Assembly: GCA_011043375.1 (NCBI GenBank)
Contig: DQYP01000172.1
Coordinates: forward strand, 1-39,086
DNA from: Thermotogaceae bacterium
GTDB taxonomy: Bacteria; Thermotogota; Thermotogae; B21-G9; HyVt-16
Length of the DNA: 39,086 nt
Reading direction: 5' to 3'
The notes beneath the pieces are model-generated. The model was not told the DNA's origin. It searched no databases and worked only from the letters and a program-made list of their open reading frames with translations. Positions within the stretch are counted from its first letter, which is position 1, and the number at the start of each line of letters is the position of its first letter. Shown here one piece after another: positions 228 through 33,584 of the stretch. The position numbers were made by a program, and so were the translations under genes.

Positions 228-3200
228 TTGGCTGTTGTAAGCCAGGAAGTTAACATAAATATAGTTGCTCAGGATAGGGCTTCTGCTATACTCCAACAAG
301 TTAAAATGCAGCTCGAAGATCTTCAGAGAGCTGCACAAAGTGCTTCTATAGGCTTTGGTAACATGACCACGGCTACTTCTCGTGTTTCCTCAAGGCTTCA
401 AACCGTTCAGAGAACATTTAGAACACTTGGGACTACCCTTAGAACTGTAGGCGATGCTGCCAAAACTCTTGGAAATGCTTTTATTGCAACACCACTTTAT
501 GCTTTCTCTCGTTCTGTAAGTTATCTCAACCAGCAACTTCTCAACATGCAGAGAAGTTTCATTACATTGCAATACGCCACGGAAGGTTTCTTGCGAACAA
601 TGATGATGGGGTTAGTGGGAGTGGCTGGTGGCGTATTTGGTTTAGCGGCCAACTATCAAAGATCCGCCGACGCCATTGCACTTGCTTCTACCATGACAGA
701 AGTGAGATTAGAAAAAGTTAGAGATATGGCTTTTGAAGTGGCCACAACCGTTGGAAAGCCAGTTGAAGAGGTAGCCAATGCCATATATATGATTGGTTCT
801 GCAGGGATAAGATCGCAAGCGGAAATAGAGAGAGCCTTGAAGGCAACCGCCGCCGCTGCTGTTGCAGGCGGCTCTGACATGCAGCAAACATTTCAGACCG
901 CGATAGGAATGGTTAATGCCTTTAAGGATATGGGATACACTTTGCAAGATGTTTATGCAAAAATGTTTAAAGCGATGAAGCAGGGATTGCTGACTTTTGA
1001 AGATATGGCAACCTATTTTGGTGTTATAACGCCAGCTGCAAACCAGTTAGGTGCTTCACTTGATGAAGCCTTGGGCGCGTTTGCCGCTTTGACTAAAATG
1101 GGATTGCTTCCCGCGAGGGCTGCTACGGCCACTCAAATGGCATTTCAGGATATTTTTGAAAAAGCTGATAAATTAAAAGAGTTAGGAATAAACATTTATG
1201 ATGCTCAAGGAAGATTCAGGGGCTTATATAGCGTTATAAAAGACCTTGCAGATAAAATGGCTGGCATGACCGACGAAGGGAAACGTGCGGTTCTGGAGAC
1301 GATAGGTTTCGAAGTAAGGGCAACAAGGGCTATAATAAACTGGATAAATCGTGTCGATGAGTTAAAAGCGATGATAGAAGATGTTGGGAGCGCTTCTGCA
1401 GAAGCCGCCGAGGACGAAGAAGACGCCTTTGTGAAAGCAGGGCAATCTGTTGCTATGACTTTTAGGCGTATTCAGCAGGAGATTCAAAGAATAATAGACT
1501 CGTTAATGCCTACATTTAATCACATTTTGCTTAGAACGCTACCAATTATTCAAAATTTAGGAAAGTGGGCCGAAAAAAATCTCGAAGGCATTTTTGATAA
1601 CTTGCTGAATATAGGAAAAGCACTGTTGCCCATCGTTATTCCTTTAAAAGTTGCCTCAGTTTTTGCTGGTGACCTCTTCCAAATGTTTTACACACTTATA
1701 CACATCATAAATCCATTTAACATCGTAATGGGCGGAATGTTGTTTGCACTATATCAATACCTTTCTGAAAACAAAGAAATACTGGACGATTTAATTGACA
1801 AAGCACGTGAAGTAATTGACAAAATCAAAGTGAGTTTCATAGAACCTATTATCACAGCGGCAAGAAAAGGAGATTTTGTAAAAGTATTTGACATTATAAT
1901 AGGCGGTCTTGCAGAATTGATCGGGAAGGCCATTGTAAAAGTTGCTGAATACCTTAAAGAACACGGTAAGGAAATATGGAAAGCGTTTACAGGTGCCGCT
2001 GGTGAAATTGGCGGTGGTGTGGTAGAAGCAGTATTAGAAGTGACAGGATTTAAGCCTAGTGAAGATATGAAAGGCGACGATGCTTTTGTTAAGAAACTTA
2101 AAGAAGCGTTAGGAGTGGCTGTAATAACAGGTGTTACCACAGGGCGCTTGGGTTTGGCTGTCAAAATTGCGTCTTTGTTTTGGTTAAATGATGTCAAAAA
2201 AGGTGACCTTAAAATGACTGAGCGTCTCAAGATTGCATTTGGGGATATGCTTGCCACTGCTATTTTATCAGAAGGCAAGCCTATACCTTTTGCAGCTATT
2301 TTGACGTTCAAATCTGTGAAAGATACCTTAGAGAATGGTTGGAGTTTAAGAGATGTGATACGAAATGTTATTATTGCCGCTTTTGTGGGAGCCGGCTTGG
2401 GATTGGCTACCAAAAGTCCACAAATAGGCGCCTTGGCGTTTTCGGTGACACTTTATATCATTTCAGAGTTTTTCCCTGGCGACCCAATGAAGCGAGTAAA
2501 AGAATTAAAAGAACGTCTTGCTGAAATAAGTTCAAGGGTTTTTGAAAAGGGTATTCCTGCTCCCGAAACTGCTATGGTTTATAAACAACAAGTGATGAGA
2601 GAATTAGGAAGTATTGCCACATTATTAGGAAACGTTGATCTCTCCAAAGTGAAAAACATTCAATATTTTTCAGAATCCTTAAAACAGTTTAACGACACAT
2701 TTGCAACACTTTCAAAGAATGTAGATAGATTATCTGTTGCTGAATTTCAAAGTCTTGTGAATCAACTCTTGAAGTTATTACAACAGATGATTACTGCGTA
2801 TGAATTTCCAGCCAAACTCGAAGAAATGGGAAAAGAAAATTGGTTTACTAATTTCCTTGGGTGGTTGAACGAGTTATACAAACGTACAGGAAGCCCAGCT
2901 ACACAACCTTTTAATCCTCTTTATACAGGTGGAGGCCATCAAGCTGGTGGTTACACGGCCGATATTGGCGTTAACAAAATTGCTGGTGTTGTTCATGGCG
3001 GAGAATGGGTAGCGCCTGCTTGGATGGTAAAACATCCACTCTACGGCGCTCTAATAGCTTGGCTGGAGCAAAAGAGAATTAGAGGATTTCAAGGCGGTGG
3101 TTCTGATAAACCGATTACCACAAGGCCGCTGGATATAGAAGGCACAATCAAAAGAGCATTTGAGTTAGGCAAAGTCCTCAGTTCGTTAGGAAATGTATTT

Positions 3201-4835
3201 GAAGATACAAGTAAGACTATTGAGGAGTTTTCTATTGACAGGTTAAGAAATTTGTTTAGAGAGTGGACTAAAGCCGAAAGAGGTGCGCCTTTACCACCTC
3301 CAAGAACTGGTTACACACCCGCTGGTATCATCTTACCTTCTGTTGAAGAATACAACGAATTGGTAAAGACGTTGTTAAAATATAGCGATATACTTTCTAA
3401 AGTAATTGCAAACGAAAACGAGCGTTTAGTTATTTCTGCGAAATTAGCAGTTGACAAAAACATTGAGACTTTAAAGGAACTGGCTGAGTTGTTAAAACAA
3501 AGCGCAACCAGCGGAAAGGATGCGGTAAGCGCCTTTAATAGAATTGCTGATGCTCTGCAGTTAAGTGCCAAAGCTCAACCCATTGCAGAAGATCTGGCAC
3601 GTTATTTTGACTTCAAAGGATTATATGAAAGCATGCAGATGTTTGCACCTGTTTCTGCAAAAATGGTAGATGTTAATAAATTGATGACTATGAGTCTCTC
3701 GGACTTCGTTGATGTGTTGCTGGAGACAACTTATGAGACAGGCAAGGTTGATAGCAGCGTGTTGAAGCTTTACAACGACTTTGTGGACTATAGAAATATT
3801 CTAGGTGATGTTATAGACGAAGAGAAGGAAAGATTAGTGACGGTTACAAAATGGAGTCAGCACCTGAAAGAGTTTGGGAAAGCAGGAAAGAATATGGCAA
3901 ATACACTTTACAATTGGACGAAAGACTCTAAAGAGTTACAAGCGGTAGTTGAAACCAATTTGACGGATTTTGATAAATTCAAAACCCTATTGGGCGGGGT
4001 AGCTGGGCTGTTTAGACCAGAAATGCTCGCGGTAGCGGCTGGAGGGGTTGGCATTCCAATAGCTGCGGGCTTAGGTGGCGCTTTAGGTATTGAAGCCGCA
4101 AAAGGCAACATAGGAGGGGTGCAGAGTTTCATAGGCGCAATTGGAGATGCTCTGATGGGTTTGATGGTTTCACTTATCCAGGTATTTGGGCCGTTAATAA
4201 TGCAATTAGAAAATGTGCAAGCGGTATTGTTCCCATTCCAGACGATTTTGCAGGCTATATGGGATGTATTGGGGCCGGTAATAAACCAGGCATTTGCTCC
4301 TTTGGCGACGATGTTAAAAATCATTGGAACGGTTATTGGTAATTTGCTATTGCCTGTTTTGCAGCCGTTACTAAGCGTATTTCAATTATTAGCAAACGTA
4401 ATGGCCATGGCATATAATATGATGTTGCCCGGGATTAGAATACTGTACATCTTAGCGTCGATGGTGGGAAATGTATTCAAAATGATTTATAACGCCTTTG
4501 CGAGTTTCTTTAACTGGTTGGCAGATCAGATAAATAATCTTCTAGGGTGGGCAGGAATTCATATTGGTCACATGAAGCTCAAGAAAGTCAAATCCTTAGA
4601 CGAAATAATGAAAGAGGCTGAACAGAAATTCAAACCGATTTCCGCAGAAGGATTAACTGGAATAGCGATGCAAACACAAGCTCAGTATACAGCAAATGTT
4701 TCTAGAACTGGTCCCGAAACTGTGAATATCTACTTCCAGAATTCTATAATATACGGCAACGAAGAGGTGTTCAAAGAACAGGTGCTTAAATGGGTGAAAG
4801 AATGGGTTAGTGAAGGAGTAGTTGGGATTGGATGA
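228..4835 (+). CDS. tail tape measure protein (TP901-type core)
   Basis: 1535-aa ORF with TTG start at 228 preceded by GAGGTG (215-220). The region around aa 140-380 (ALASTMTE..IGSAGI..FAALTKMGL..) resembles the TP901-family tape-measure core as I recall it. It has a long helical middle and Gly-rich/hydrophobic C-terminal segments. Confidence 0.9.
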   Translation: MAVVSQEVNINIVAQDRASAILQQVKMQLEDLQRAAQSASIGFGNMTTATSRVSSRLQTVQRTFRTLGTTLRTVGDAAKTLGNAFIATPLYAFSRSVSYLNQQLLNMQRSFITLQYATEGFLRTMMMGLVGVAGGVFGLAANYQRSADAIALASTMTEVRLEKVRDMAFEVATTVGKPVEEVANAIYMIGSAGIRSQAEIERALKATAAAAVAGGSDMQQTFQTAIGMVNAFKDMGYTLQDVYAKMFKAMKQGLLTFEDMATYFGVITPAANQLGASLDEALGAFAALTKMGLLPARAATATQMAFQDIFEKADKLKELGINIYDAQGRFRGLYSVIKDLADKMAGMTDEGKRAVLETIGFEVRATRAIINWINRVDELKAMIEDVGSASAEAAEDEEDAFVKAGQSVAMTFRRIQQEIQRIIDSLMPTFNHILLRTLPIIQNLGKWAEKNLEGIFDNLLNIGKALLPIVIPLKVASVFAGDLFQMFYTLIHIINPFNIVMGGMLFALYQYLSENKEILDDLIDKAREVIDKIKVSFIEPIITAARKGDFVKVFDIIIGGLAELIGKAIVKVAEYLKEHGKEIWKAFTGAAGEIGGGVVEAVLEVTGFKPSEDMKGDDAFVKKLKEALGVAVITGVTTGRLGLAVKIASLFWLNDVKKGDLKMTERLKIAFGDMLATAILSEGKPIPFAAILTFKSVKDTLENGWSLRDVIRNVIIAAFVGAGLGLATKSPQIGALAFSVTLYIISEFFPGDPMKRVKELKERLAEISSRVFEKGIPAPETAMVYKQQVMRELGSIATLLGNVDLSKVKNIQYFSESLKQFNDTFATLSKNVDRLSVAEFQSLVNQLLKLLQQMITAYEFPAKLEEMGKENWFTNFLGWLNELYKRTGSPATQPFNPLYTGGGHQAGGYTADIGVNKIAGVVHGGEWVAPAWMVKHPLYGALIAWLEQKRIRGFQGGGSDKPITTRPLDIEGTIKRAFELGKVLSSLGNVFEDTSKTIEEFSIDRLRNLFREWTKAERGAPLPPPRTGYTPAGIILPSVEEYNELVKTLLKYSDILSKVIANENERLVISAKLAVDKNIETLKELAELLKQSATSGKDAVSAFNRIADALQLSAKAQPIAEDLARYFDFKGLYESMQMFAPVSAKMVDVNKLMTMSLSDFVDVLLETTYETGKVDSSVLKLYNDFVDYRNILGDVIDEEKERLVTVTKWSQHLKEFGKAGKNMANTLYNWTKDSKELQAVVETNLTDFDKFKTLLGGVAGLFRPEMLAVAAGGVGIPIAAGLGGALGIEAAKGNIGGVQSFIGAIGDALMGLMVSLIQVFGPLIMQLENVQAVLFPFQTILQAIWDVLGPVINQAFAPLATMLKIIGTVIGNLLLPVLQPLLSVFQLLANVMAMAYNMMLPGIRILYILASMVGNVFKMIYNAFASFFNWLADQINNLLGWAGIHIGHMKLKKVKSLDEIMKEAEQKFKPISAEGLTGIAMQTQAQYTANVSRTGPETVNIYFQNSIIYGNEEVFKEQVLKWVKEWVSEGVVGIG

Positions 4836-9009: not shown

Positions 9010-9137
9010 GTTATATTCCCATAGTCGATCCAAAAGCCACGGAAAAAGTTCTGTTTGCTCTGGGATTTCGACGTATTCAGCAGAAGGGAGACCAGAGAAA
9101 TGACACTTTTTGTGAAAGGAGGTTGGTTTATGCCTAG
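9006..9137 (+). pseudogene. hicA: truncated HicA-like mRNA-interferase toxin remnant
   Basis: The GTG at 9006 overlaps the hicB stop (GTGA). VSYIPIVDPKATEKVLFALGFRRIQQKG matches the HicA N-terminal helix-strand region. The GSH catalytic segment and the rest of the protein are missing, and the reading frame runs into the next gene's RBS. Confidence 0.5.
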
Positions 9138-9525
9138 ATATCGTGTTTTGAGCGATTACTTTTATTATGATGGTGTAACAAGGGCAAGAGATGAAGAATT
9201 CGAAACCACTGAATATATTTATTCCGATGATGTAATATTACTAAACGATTCTCCCAGCACTCGCGTGGTGCTAGCTCATTTCACAGGAGCTATAAACGCC
9301 GGAGATGTACAAGAAATAATTATCAATTGGGGCGATGACGAAATCGGTGTTTTATTCTTAGCAGTTGATGGTGAGATCAAACTCCATTACAATGGAAATG
9401 AAACTGCACAATTTAAGGACTGCAATATAGTACATCGCATCAGTGCTAATATGGTAAGAAAGGTGGTTATAGAGGCTATAACGGACAGTAATATTTGGCT
9501 TGCTGTTCTTAGGGAGGCGAGGTAA
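9130..9525 (+). CDS. hypothetical tail-module protein (MPRY paralogue A)
   Basis: ATG 9130 is preceded by AGGAGG (9117-9123). The upstream part of tracked ORF 9055.. overlaps the hicA remnant. Resembles ORF 15284..15688 (MPRY.. start, WGD, ..IEA..DS.. C-terminus). Confidence 0.6.
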   Translation: MPRYRVLSDYFYYDGVTRARDEEFETTEYIYSDDVILLNDSPSTRVVLAHFTGAINAGDVQEIIINWGDDEIGVLFLAVDGEIKLHYNGNETAQFKDCNIVHRISANMVRKVVIEAITDSNIWLAVLREAR

Positions 9526-11125: not shown

Positions 11126-11458
11126 ATGGAGCACAGAGAATTTGAACAGGATGTGGTTGAAAGGCTTGCGGGTATTGAGACCGCTATAAAATACCTCTCA
11201 GAAGAAGTGATGGGGCTCAAAGATGACATTGAATATATTCGTTCCCAACTTGAGGAAAGAATTGCCGAAAATGGCCGCCAATCAGCTACCTTAGAACACC
11301 ACGCACATGGTTTGGCCGAATTAAGAGAAGATTATACAGCGCTGGAAACCAAAACTGATTCTTTAGGAAAGAAAGTTTGGACATTGTGGGGGATAGCAAT
11401 AACAGCAAGTGTAATGATTCCTATTATTATTCAAATCATTGCAACATTAGTGAGGTGA
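11126..11458 (+). CDS. coiled-coil protein with C-terminal TM helix (XhlA-like lysis-associated architecture)
   Basis: RBS GAGGAGG. The N-terminus is a heptad-like coiled coil and the C-terminus VWTLWGIAITASVMIPIIIQIIATLV is a TM segment. This architecture resembles the XhlA family. Confidence 0.45.
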   Translation: MEHREFEQDVVERLAGIETAIKYLSEEVMGLKDDIEYIRSQLEERIAENGRQSATLEHHAHGLAELREDYTALETKTDSLGKKVWTLWGIAITASVMIPIIIQIIATLVR

Positions 11459-11463
11459 CCTAA

Positions 11464-11844
11464 ATTGGGGAGAAATACTTAGGGAGGCATTTAATAGCTT
11501 CGTTTTACAATTGTCAGCGCGAAGACCTTCTAACAGACCCAGCCCGTCTTTTAAAGCTGTTATGGATGGCAGCGATAAAAGCCAACGCAACACCCCTCGA
11601 AAGCGAATATCATTATTTTGATAACGGTGGAGTTTCAGTAATGGTTATAGTTGCAGAATCACATCTTTCAATTCACACATGGCCTGAGTACAATTATGCC
11701 GAAATAGACATTTACACTTGCGGTGAGACGTTGCCCGAAGCAGCGCTACACTATCTTGAAAATGCCATAGATCCCGATTTTATAGATGTAATAACTTTAA
11801 ACAGGGGCAACACTCAGATAATTAAGAGTTTATCGGGGAGGTGA
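11464..11844 (+). CDS. speH: S-adenosylmethionine decarboxylase proenzyme (pyruvoyl-dependent, SpeH/SpeD type) with no canonical start codon
   Basis: The frame is open from 11464 and encodes ..KYLGRHLIASFYNCQREDL..GVSVMVIVAESHLSIHTWPEYNYAEIDIYTCGE... That is collinear with Thermotoga maritima SpeH, including the ES self-cleavage site. The first in-frame ATG (11566) would delete the conserved N-terminal 34 residues. GAGGTGA lies at 11452-11458. Confidence 0.75.
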   Translation: MGEKYLGRHLIASFYNCQREDLLTDPARLLKLLWMAAIKANATPLESEYHYFDNGGVSVMVIVAESHLSIHTWPEYNYAEIDIYTCGETLPEAALHYLENAIDPDFIDVITLNRGNTQIIKSLSGR

Positions 11845-12203
11845 AACAAGTGGTCATTACTACAGGAGATAAACCAACAGAGATAGCAATTTTGAACGTT
11901 TTAGACGACATAAAAAGAGGTAAGTGCAGAGTAAGATATGCTTTCAGATATGCATTTAAAGAAACCACCCAAACTGTGGAGGAAGTTGATCCCGAAACAG
12001 GCGAAGAAGCTCCAAAAGAACTCCCAGCTTGGCAATATGAAGAAGTTATCGATGAGATAGAACTCCCGCTATATTTAAAACCAAATTTAGAGTCAATCTT
12101 AAAAACACTTTACGAGCAATCTATCCCTACTTTAGAAGAGTTAACTACTTTAGCAAACTTTGAACTTCCAAAGGAGATTTCATTAAGTGAAGGTGATAAC
12201 TAA
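11841..12203 (+). CDS. hypothetical acidic protein
   Basis: GTG start overlapping the speH stop (GTGA). 120 aa. Confidence 0.55.
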   Translation: MKQVVITTGDKPTEIAILNVLDDIKRGKCRVRYAFRYAFKETTQTVEEVDPETGEEAPKELPAWQYEEVIDEIELPLYLKPNLESILKTLYEQSIPTLEELTTLANFELPKEISLSEGDN

Positions 12204-13486
12204 TGGCGCTGCATAAAACTAATTACGGTCTCATATATAATGATGATGGTTCTCTTTGTGTTACGATCAGAGATGATGACGTGCCGTTTTCTGGTGTTAG
12301 AAGTTTTGCTGTGGAGGAATGGACAACAAATTATTTTGGCTCTGATGCGTGGAACTTTGATAGTGATCAGTCGACATTTTATCCGTACGCGCTTGCTTCG
12401 GGGAAAACATGGGAAGACTGTTGGGATGAAAGCCAACGAGCTTACATAGGGGGGGACAATCTAACTGTATATCGTATTTACACTCAATCCATAGATTTAG
12501 GTCAGGTTTATTCAGCTGGCACAAAAATAACTGTTTCTTGGAAACATAAAGGTTATTTATGGTTTGTTAGGTTGTTTTATTCAGAGAATGGAACTGATTT
12601 TACAGCTTGGAACAAAGATACAGATGATATACAAATCTACGGCGATGCTTCACTTGATTTTTGGGAAGGTTCAAATGGTCTTCACATAAAGATCAATGGT
12701 ATCCGCACAAATCATAGTGGTCATCCAGAACAATTGCTGGATAAGTGGTATGATGTAAAAATTACTTATACTCTACCAACTGACGCAAGATACATTAAAT
12801 TCGTTTGGGATTTTTACTGGGCTTATAAAGCGAATAATGGCAAGGGTGTATCAGGTTATATTCACCACCCCCAATTAGAAGTCAAACCCTTCGCCACATC
12901 ATTTGTGGATGGGAGTAGACCAAGAGGAAAACTACATATACCTTCTAATAGTTTGGGCTTCAATCCTCCCGCTGATGACTGGGTAATAGCATATTGGAAA
13001 AAACCAATCGGAACTCATATTGGTGATTTAAATGGTTATAACATAGACAGTTTGGGTGAGCCAACTTCAGGAAATCTCTATATTTGGTGGGGCAAAAATA
13101 AAGGTACAAACGAGTTGTGGTTGAATGTTTGGGATGGTTCTTCCGTTTTTCATACAGCAGTGCCATTAGATGTAAACGATTTCTTCAATAAGTGGCATTT
13201 TATAGTTTTAACAAAAGTAGGTGATGTTTTTACTTTATATTATGATGGTGAACAGATATTGCAAATGATAAAAAATGTTTCAGCTCTTGCAATGCCAACA
13301 ACAGGTTTGTTGTTGGCGGATTGGATAGGAAATTCTGCTGAGCCGTGTACCAGTTTATTTTCCAACCTCTACATCGGCAAAGCTAAAGACGAAAACGGTC
13401 ATTTAATCTGGGATGAAAGTTACATCCAACAGCTTTATCAAGCGAAAAGGCCATTTAGTGTGCCGCCCAAATTACCAATTCTATAA
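12203..13486 (+). CDS. tail fibre / receptor-binding candidate with C-terminal LamG (concanavalin A-like) domain
   Basis: TAATG coupling. The C-terminal ~170 aa (..WHFIVLTKVGDVFTLYYDGEQI..SLFSNLYIGKA..) has a Laminin-G_3-like pattern. Confidence 0.5.
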   Translation: MALHKTNYGLIYNDDGSLCVTIRDDDVPFSGVRSFAVEEWTTNYFGSDAWNFDSDQSTFYPYALASGKTWEDCWDESQRAYIGGDNLTVYRIYTQSIDLGQVYSAGTKITVSWKHKGYLWFVRLFYSENGTDFTAWNKDTDDIQIYGDASLDFWEGSNGLHIKINGIRTNHSGHPEQLLDKWYDVKITYTLPTDARYIKFVWDFYWAYKANNGKGVSGYIHHPQLEVKPFATSFVDGSRPRGKLHIPSNSLGFNPPADDWVIAYWKKPIGTHIGDLNGYNIDSLGEPTSGNLYIWWGKNKGTNELWLNVWDGSSVFHTAVPLDVNDFFNKWHFIVLTKVGDVFTLYYDGEQILQMIKNVSALAMPTTGLLLADWIGNSAEPCTSLFSNLYIGKAKDENGHLIWDESYIQQLYQAKRPFSVPPKLPIL

Positions 13487-13499
13487 GGGAGGTGAATTT

Positions 13500-13787
13500 A
13501 TGAACGAGTGGATAGCTTTGTTGGTAGGTTTTCTGCTTCCACCACTTTTTGCTTGGATTTTAGCTTTGATAAAACCTGCTTCCGTGGCAACTTTTCTTGC
13601 AAAAACACTCTCTAAACTCACAAAAGACTCCAAAGTTAGAAACAAAGTTGAAAATCTTATAGGGGTTAAGTTGCTTGAGATCGGAACGGCTATAGTTGCC
13701 GAAACTCCTGATAATCAAGAAGTGGCAAAACACATAACCGAAATCAAAGCAAATATTGAAGTTTTGAAAAAGCTTATGCAAAAGTGA
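13500..13787 (+). CDS. holin-like small membrane protein
   Basis: ATG 13500 follows AGGGAGGTGA. It has an N-terminal TM (WIALLVGFLLPPLFAWILALI) and a charged helical tail, and sits directly upstream of the endolysin candidate. Confidence 0.5.
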   Translation: MNEWIALLVGFLLPPLFAWILALIKPASVATFLAKTLSKLTKDSKVRNKVENLIGVKLLEIGTAIVAETPDNQEVAKHITEIKANIEVLKKLMQK

Positions 13788-33504: not shown

Positions 33505-33584
33505 TGGCAGGGGCGGTGGGATTCGAACCCACGTTAGCCTTCGGGGTAGAAACCCGATGCTCGATCCAGCTGAGCTACGCCCCT
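33505..33584 (-). tRNA. tRNA-Arg (anticodon UCU) with encoded CCA and an unusually long 8-nt variable loop
   Basis: Manual fold on the minus strand: acceptor AGGGGCG/CGCCCCT, D arm GCTC-AGCTGGATC-GAGC, anticodon arm TCGGG-TTTCTAC-CCCGA, variable AGGCTAAC, T arm GTGGG-TTCGAAT-CCCAC, discriminator G, CCA. Confidence 0.8.

Follow-up and report, generated by a model that had tools for sequence, protein, structure and literature searches.

A phage-borne S-adenosylmethionine decarboxylase gene that probably starts at AUU in a siphovirus-like genome from a Thermotogae host

We analyzed a phage-borne gene for an S-adenosylmethionine (AdoMet or SAM) decarboxylase (AdoMetDC) that lacks a canonical start codon at its conserved N-terminus. 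The gene lies on a 39,086-nt contig (DQYP01000172.1) of a 2.18-Mb metagenome-assembled genome (MAG; 84% complete) of a Thermotogaceae bacterium (GCA_011043375.1); the window referred to below is this entire contig (C1). The contig is a siphovirus-like genome of ~39 kb, with Marinitoga camini viruses 1 and 2 (MCV1 and MCV2) and MPV1 among its relatives and a host of the class Thermotogae. We find it quite probable that the locus as a whole is best explained as an intact, selected, phage-borne AdoMetDC proenzyme gene that is started at AUU 11464.

Close haplotypes of the locus were found via protein clusters and by searching with a 67-aa truncated call of the gene. They came from separate metagenome assemblies, which we denote L099 (JGI 3300025156), L100 (ENA ERZ27245762, a 39,088-nt contig), L101 (JGI 3300021471), L107 (ENA ERZ27248172) and L002 (SRR21462135), and they represent four haplotypes: the window type (to which L099 and L100 also belong, identical at this locus), L107, L101 and L002. 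L101 is close to the window and L002 is distant, while L107 is a mosaic in which codons 1–36 are the same as in the window and the remainder has diverged. A megablast search of the locus against phages and an exact 22-mer search of JGI metagenome contigs gave zero matches, and protein-pattern scans of viral, metagenome and genome contigs returned nothing above 51% identity. The features of the locus, in the coordinates of the window, are as follows.

11126–11458, + strand: upstream gene of 110 aa, with a coiled coil and a C-terminal hydrophobic helix, ending in GTG AGG TGA
11452–11458, + strand: Shine–Dalgarno sequence GAGGTGA, 5 nt ahead of ATT and the same in all haplotypes
11456–11458, + strand: TGA stop of the upstream gene, inside the Shine–Dalgarno sequence of the decarboxylase gene
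11461–11463, + strand: in-frame TAA, following CC, which closes the decarboxylase frame just upstream of ATT and is kept in all haplotypes
11464–11466, + strand: ATT, the first codon after TAA and the proposed AUU initiation codon
11464–11844, + strand: class 1b AdoMetDC proenzyme gene, 126 codons plus TGA at 11842–11844
11465–11482, + strand: out-of-frame TTG that overlaps ATT (AUUG) and opens a frame of 5 codons, TTG GGG AGA AAT ACT TAG
11467–11470, + strand: four-G run within the TTG 11465 frame; both TTG and run are missing in L002
11479–11481, + strand: TTA, Leu6 of the LGRH motif; TTG in L002, where gene callers use it as start
11480–11482, + strand: TAG closing the TTG 11465 frame
11566–11568, + strand: ATG at codon 35, the first canonical in-frame start, with no Shine–Dalgarno sequence
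11656–11661, + strand: GAA TCA (codons 65/66), the Glu-Ser self-cleavage and pyruvoyl site
11674–11676 and 11719–11721, + strand: His71 and Cys86, catalytic residues by alignment
11837–11852, + strand: GGAGGTGA, which holds the decarboxylase TGA stop and is followed after 5 nt by GTG 11850, a layout like that at 11452–11466

By family and predicted fold, the frame 11464–11844 is a full-length, intact gene for a class 1b (SpeH/SpeD-type) AdoMetDC proenzyme, as a preliminary description of the locus had held. Its product matches the Pfam AdoMet_dc profile PF02675 over positions 1–107 of 107 (E 1e-32, 113 bits, cut-off 25) and the NCBIfam equivalog TIGR03330 over positions 1–112 of 112 (120 bits, cut-off 75.65). 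Residues 4–116 align with the Thermotoga maritima enzyme (1TLU) at ~41% identity, placing Glu65-Ser66, His71 and Cys86 in register with S63, H68 and C83 of that protein; E65-S66, H71 and C86 are invariant across 76 aligned sequences, and Glu75, Phe52, Ser58 and Pro74 are also kept. An AlphaFold2 (AF2) model built with 76 homologues has a mean predicted local distance difference test score (pLDDT) of 95.8, with strand beta1 at residues 5–17 and helix alpha1 at 26–39, and Foldseek superposes it on 1TLU with a TM-score of 0.87/0.94 and a root-mean-square deviation of 1.1 Å. The 92-aa open reading frame (ORF) from ATG 11566 reaches only positions 32–112 of the TIGR03330 profile, and a start at Met35 would lose both beta1 and alpha1 of the model. 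The 126-aa product, fMet-GEKYLGRHL..., should self-cleave between Glu65 and Ser66, generating the pyruvoyl cofactor.

The start region reads ATTGGGGAG...TTA, and codons 1–34 of the window include none of ATG, GTG and TTG; here the preliminary description, including its positions for TAA, ATT, GAGGTGA, TTG 11465 and the G run, was correct. ATT is the sole near-cognate initiation codon among codons 1–8. A GGAGG-type Shine–Dalgarno sequence stands 5–8 nt from the start of nearly every gene on the contig, whereas ATG 11566 has none. The spacing from GAGGTGA to ATT, 8 nt when counted from the GGAGG-equivalent end, is the modal spacing for the genome. A frame of 60 codons or more ends with its TGA inside GAGGTGA at 38 places in the genome, and at 25 of them a canonical start comes 3–9 nt later, mostly 4–6. 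The decarboxylase locus is built in the same way, its ATT standing 5 nt on, and is the only case in the window where a near-cognate codon (ATT, ATC, ATA or CTG) takes this place and the canonical start is distant. Elsewhere in the genome, a junction on contig C79 of G000 (minus strand, ~6030) likewise has a stop within GAGGTGA and no canonical start; an ATA 6 nt downstream opens a 290-codon frame and is a candidate second non-canonical start. Existing annotations of the decarboxylase gene differ: NCBI gives the contig a 126-aa product (P0122) that begins M-GEKY at ATT 11464, and the JGI and ENA callers give the window-type allele only 92-aa or 67-aa products, the 92-aa product having no record in an exact look-up.

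Two other accounts of the missing start codon were ruled out. Fusion or read-through with the upstream gene is precluded by TAA 11461–11463, which sits in the decarboxylase frame, and an alternative genetic code by the adjacent genes, which read normally. Promoter and terminator scans between 9 and 16 kb of the window gave background levels only, with no sign of a separate transcription unit.

Comparison of the haplotypes strongly favours an AUU start. The arrangement GAGGTGA-YCTAA-ATT is kept in every haplotype and the ATT never varies. The first canonical in-frame start, by contrast, falls at codon 35 in the window and in L107, at codon 10 in L101 and at codon 6 in L002, shifting between haplotypes because Leu6 and Leu10 toggle synonymously between TTA and TTG, as the first twelve codons show.

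Window, codons 1–12, + strand: ATT GGG GAG AAA TAC TTA GGG AGG CAT TTA ATA GCT
L101, codons 1–12: ATT GGG GAG AAA TAT TTA GGA AGA CAT TTG ATA GCT
L002, codons 1–12: ATT AGG GAA AGG TAT TTG GGA CGG CAT TTA ATA GCT

Between the window and L101, codons 1–34 differ by six synonymous changes (codons 5, 7, 8, 10, 17 and 19) and no non-synonymous change, and the whole gene by 14 synonymous and 2–3 non-synonymous changes, a ratio of non-synonymous to synonymous rates (dN/dS) of ~0.05. By our own arithmetic, the chance that six of six changes would be synonymous is ~1e-4 given ~22% synonymous sites, or ~2e-3 under a strong transition bias. The comparison with L002 points the same way: codons 1–34 show 20 synonymous differences over 21 sites and 10 non-synonymous differences over 81 sites, in line with the gene as a whole, in which synonymous sites are saturated (proportion of differing sites, pS, ~0.8–0.9) and the non-synonymous proportion (pN) is ~0.10–0.12. 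Codon differences between the window and L107 number 32 synonymous and 8 non-synonymous. Judged by these substitution patterns, codons 1–34 are under strong purifying selection. Since the window/L101 ancestor, by parsimony, already had no canonical start before codon 35 and purifying selection continued afterwards, we infer that the allele is expressed.

A beginning of the form MxxLGRH is found in 81 of ~115 homologues, and speH of G001, a member of the host genus, starts from an ATG at the conserved N-terminus (ATG GGA ATG AAA GCT CTG GGA AGA CAT). Leu precedes GRH in 69 of 74 aligned homologues. The start that gene callers give L002 at the LGRH leucine ('MGRH') is unique among the ~115 homologues, and the L002 TTG is therefore best read as Leu6 rather than as a start.

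Translation of the decarboxylase thus quite probably starts at ATT 11464, one of the options listed in the preliminary description and the one that the invariant TAA-ATT and GAGGTGA strongly favour. As far as can be read from these alleles, the locus has the properties of an AUU-type gene, namely an appropriately spaced Shine–Dalgarno sequence, no usable canonical start ahead of the conserved domain and an AUU conserved among relatives.

Several points weigh against this interpretation. Only four haplotypes exist, and the counts within codons 2–5 are tiny (against L002, ~3 synonymous and 2 non-synonymous). The in-frame TTG at codon 6 of L002 could serve as a start, so that use of AUU is not forced there, and haplotypes of the window type hold a possible competitor of AUU in the out-of-frame UUG that overlaps it, 6 nt from the Shine–Dalgarno sequence. 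Initiation factor 3 (IF3) normally discriminates against AUU, which may leave expression very low. Two further points concern function: the protein carries the replacements E13S, F49Y, P54N and G59V in all haplotypes, all of them in the beta chain (window 11500–11640; T. maritima E11, F46, P51 and G56), and the MAG, 84% complete, shows neither a host speH nor a speE (no PF01564 match), the phage gene being its only speH match. A single missing contig could explain the absence of both host genes.

Other readings of the start were weighed against the same haplotypes. Ribosomes might begin at the out-of-frame UUG 11465, 6 nt after GAGGTGA, and slip by −1 on GGGG, where a Gly-tRNA on GGG 11468–11470 is able to re-pair with GGG 11467–11469; or the G run might be phase-variable or mis-sequenced and truly hold five Gs, which would bring TTG 11465 into frame. 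TTG and GGGG do occur in the window, L101 and L107, but L002 reads ATTAGGGAA, without the TTG and without the G run, and yet its gene is intact, selected and equipped with the same ATT and Shine–Dalgarno sequence; the slippage reading requires different mechanisms in different haplotypes. Separate assemblies and samples, namely those of the window, L099, L100, L101 and L107, agree on the four-G sequence, and a five-G run occurs in none of them. The homopolymer error suggested in the preliminary description is thus unlikely, and a phase-variable tract, its other suggestion, is disfavoured by a run length that never differs among assemblies. No stimulatory RNA structure is predicted, the fold energy around the start being no different from that of shuffled sequences (z −0.52), and the combination of a conserved slippery site and a downstream stimulatory structure that marks programmed −1 frameshifting was not found here. 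We consider a UUG start or a five-G run highly improbable. Equally slight is the chance of initiation at another in-frame non-canonical codon, either ATA 11494 or TTA 11479. GGGAGG 11482–11487 is a perfect core Shine–Dalgarno sequence 6 nt ahead of ATA, itself a near-cognate start, and GGGGAG lies upstream of TTA; but GGGAGG also spells Gly-Arg codons and reads GGAAGA in L101 and GGACGG in L002. ATA 11494 is excluded because GGGAGG is not conserved and because the preceding codons 5–10, which specify half of beta1 and the LGRH motif, itself almost invariant, differ between the window and L101 by synonymous changes alone. TTA is two positions away from AUG.

It is also conceivable that the window allele was recently disabled, or yields only a truncated, non-functional 92-aa product from ATG 11566, after an ancestral TTG at codon 6 was lost to TTA. 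L002 does carry TTG at codon 6, where gene callers place the start, and the JGI and ENA calls for the window-type allele are indeed truncated. L107, however, shares the window-type start region, and L101 too has TTA at codon 6; the changes accumulated since these alleles split (14 synonymous against 2–3 non-synonymous for L101, 32 against 8 for L107, and 6 against 0 within codons 1–34) indicate that selection persisted without TTG at codon 6. Purifying selection, on codons 1–34 as on the whole gene, likewise leads us to reject the recent inactivation that the preliminary description had put forward. A start at the LGRH leucine has no parallel among the homologues, and a Met35 start has no Shine–Dalgarno sequence and strips the fold of beta1 and alpha1. 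ATG 11566 is not the real start, and we hold a disabled or truncated allele to be very unlikely.

Returning to AUU 11464, initiation there would probably mix de novo initiation with termination–reinitiation, as it does for Escherichia coli infC: an ATT placed 5 nt behind a stop codon that is itself part of the gene's Shine–Dalgarno sequence fits the infC reinitiation model. Such a weak start codon would hold expression low, possibly in an IF3-sensitive manner. Because of the AUUG overlap, some ribosomes may start the 5-codon UUG frame instead in window-type haplotypes. One could go further and read the conserved AUU, translationally coupled to the membrane-protein gene ahead of it, as a purposeful brake on the expression of an enzyme whose four beta-chain replacements would make it a new substrate or regulatory variant of SpeD in thermophile viruses. 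It might be a decarboxylase of the arginine type or be adapted to making long-chain polyamines; we think this quite unlikely.

Whether the protein decarboxylates AdoMet is a separate matter. At the four replaced beta-chain positions the consensus in 74 homologues is E/D (74), F (70), P (71) and G (73), that is, at least 93% conservation (93–100%), and the host-genus chromosomal copy retains the consensus at all four. The beta subunit is said, from 2008 work by Giles and Graham, to set specificity in Sulfolobus paralogues. Other phage homologues are arginine or ornithine decarboxylases (ADC and ODC; PMC9992855, PMC10407285), with loss of a Pro that bona fide AdoMetDCs always have as the main ADC-type mark (PMC10407285), and the four replacements, together with these activities among phage homologues, make the substrate less than certain. 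The protein might accordingly be made but shifted to L-arginine or another amino acid, which we consider unlikely. Residues known for substrate binding and catalysis are intact (E65, E75, F52, S58, S66, H71 and C86), including both of the substrate-binding Glu residues described in PMC1282579. The protein passes the AdoMetDC equivalog cut-off of TIGR03330 (120 versus 75.65 bits), and its central region, AESHLSIHTWPEYNYAEIDIYTCG, is canonical, with the Pro and Glu of TWPE included. The ODC-type marks of a published fusion-protein alignment (..QLIETS..GHF..Y.D.FSC) are missing from it, as are the Gln, Thr, Phe and Tyr diagnostic of SpeDC (PMC10407285): the window has VIVAESHLSIHTWPE..AEIDIYTCG against ..VQLIETSL.SGHFAN..YIDIFSC in ODC domains. 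For the SpeDA mark, Pro loss, the evidence is divided, in that P74, the Pro of TWPE, is kept and Asn replaces the Pro of FxP at position 54; PMC10407285 names no position for the diagnostic Pro in its text. A tblastn search against phages recovered validated bona fide enzymes (phiYS40, cyanophages) and no pelagiphage ADC-type record at E 1e-3, and divergence is far greater in the validated phiYS40 enzyme. AdoMet is thus the likely substrate. An unrelated 39.8-kb viral contig, L005 (IMGVR_UViG_3300032248_000908), encodes a 127-aa AdoMetDC homologue at 2980–3363 that also lacks the FxP proline and sits between the genes for the two ribonucleotide reductase subunits.

With AdoMet as substrate, the enzyme would most likely make decarboxylated SAM (dcSAM) for a host aminopropyltransferase of the spermidine synthase type, and the added dcSAM would raise polyamine supply during infection, which is the most economical function. 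Polyamine supply had been suggested in the preliminary description; it fits published work on phage AdoMetDCs (PMC9992855) and the speH–speE operon of the host's relatives. Nothing was found in support of that description's other idea, SAM depletion as an anti-defence measure. Each of the 41 genomes searched (the MAG and 40 relatives of its class) has one speH homologue, and speE is present in all 12 relatives searched, adjoining speH wherever positions were compared. The speH proteins of the relatives are 42–52% identical to the phage protein, and the phage gene is therefore not a recent capture.

The decarboxylase gene sits in the late (tail/lysis) operon of the phage. The tail protein at 12203–13486 is 30–37% identical to its counterparts in the Marinitoga viruses; MCV1, MCV2 and MPV1 lack the decarboxylase gene, and no terminal repeat was found in the contig. 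The 110-aa gene lies directly upstream of the decarboxylase gene in all four haplotypes (L002, L099, L100, L101 and L107); it had been called XhlA-like, a label not borne out by its PF10779 match (11.5 bits, E 0.35, cut-off 34.7). Downstream genes differ among haplotypes. In L107 (980–1267, compared with window 11850–13787) the MNEWIALL gene (window 13500) comes directly after the decarboxylase gene, neither the 117-aa nor the 427-aa tail-fibre-like gene being present, and in L002 other Laminin_G_3 proteins are encoded downstream; the receptor-binding cassette downstream is therefore variable.

Shine–Dalgarno positions bear on other starts in the window as well. The gene immediately downstream of the decarboxylase is listed from GTG 11841 (11841–12203), yet GTG 11850 follows its Shine–Dalgarno sequence, GGAGGTGA (11837–11844), at a distance of 5 nt and is likely the true start. 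Gene callers gave L099 and L100 the 117-aa version, which matches PHROG 38476 (E 9e-21). Within 9055–9525, ATG 9130 has AAGGAGGT 6 nt upstream, and within 13413–13787, ATG 13500 has GGAGGTGA 4 nt upstream; these positions suggest that both genes are shorter than their longest ORFs. The phage also carries a tRNA-Arg with anticodon TCT, which reads AGA (33505–33584, minus strand).

Both phage AdoMetDC genes and AUU starts were known before, and the NCBI pipeline had already called the ATT start; this is no new class of system, and its value is mainly for annotation, with a small testable example besides. The locus offers a clean comparative-genomics case of an AUU start in a phage gene whose product standard gene callers cut to 92 or 67 residues, and such truncated calls hide functional auxiliary metabolic genes in viromes. 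It also extends phage-borne polyamine-pathway genes to siphoviruses of Thermotogae, hosts that depend on polyamines at high temperature.

Compared with known phage AdoMetDC/SpeD genes (cyanophage speD and those of Thermus phages phiYS40/TMA and of Moorella and Bacillus phages; Li et al. 2023, PMC9992855), the present gene shares the family, fold, ES site, His and Cys, and like that of phiYS40 it comes from a phage with a thermophilic host. Several phage class 1b AdoMetDCs, including that of phiYS40, have been validated experimentally and restore spermidine synthesis in E. coli (PMC9992855). A homologue is present in 148 deposited phage records, with a maximum identity of 44%, and the phage decarboxylase matches PHROG 3125. 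The present carrier is a small (~39 kb) Marinitoga-virus-like siphovirus with the gene in its tail/lysis operon, whereas the others are large (at least 79 kb), and the gene differs further from known phage copies in its non-canonical start and in the four replaced, nearly invariant beta-chain residues. All catalytic residues are common to the phage protein and T. maritima SpeH (TM0655; PDB 1TLU, 1TMI and 1VR7), but the chromosomal genes of T. maritima and the host clade start with ATG (MxxLGRH) and lie beside speE, and the phage gene does not.

The closest parallels for the start are E. coli infC and pcnB, which likewise pair a near-cognate AUU with a Shine–Dalgarno sequence. In E. coli reporters, AUG and GUG perform 6–8 times better than UUG and AUU, with AUU about equal to UUG; for infC, whose AUU comes 3 nt behind the stop of the gene before it, reinitiation and de novo initiation have about equal shares (PMC3592434). 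The AUU follows the stop of the preceding cistron shortly in both cases, as UAA GGU AUU in infC and UGA CCUAA AUU in the phage gene, for which low, IF3-sensitive expression would be expected as for other AUU genes (PMC3592434). Unlike infC and pcnB, the phage gene is metabolic and encodes no translation factor, no autoregulatory logic is evident, and its use of AUU is deduced from sequence. The infC gene of the host MAG (L098, C2:11005–11572) has no well-placed canonical start; an ATT at C2:11053 lies 8 nt after AAAGGGG, with the nearest TTG 17 nt away, which makes it probable that infC starts at AUU in this host too, as in E. coli.

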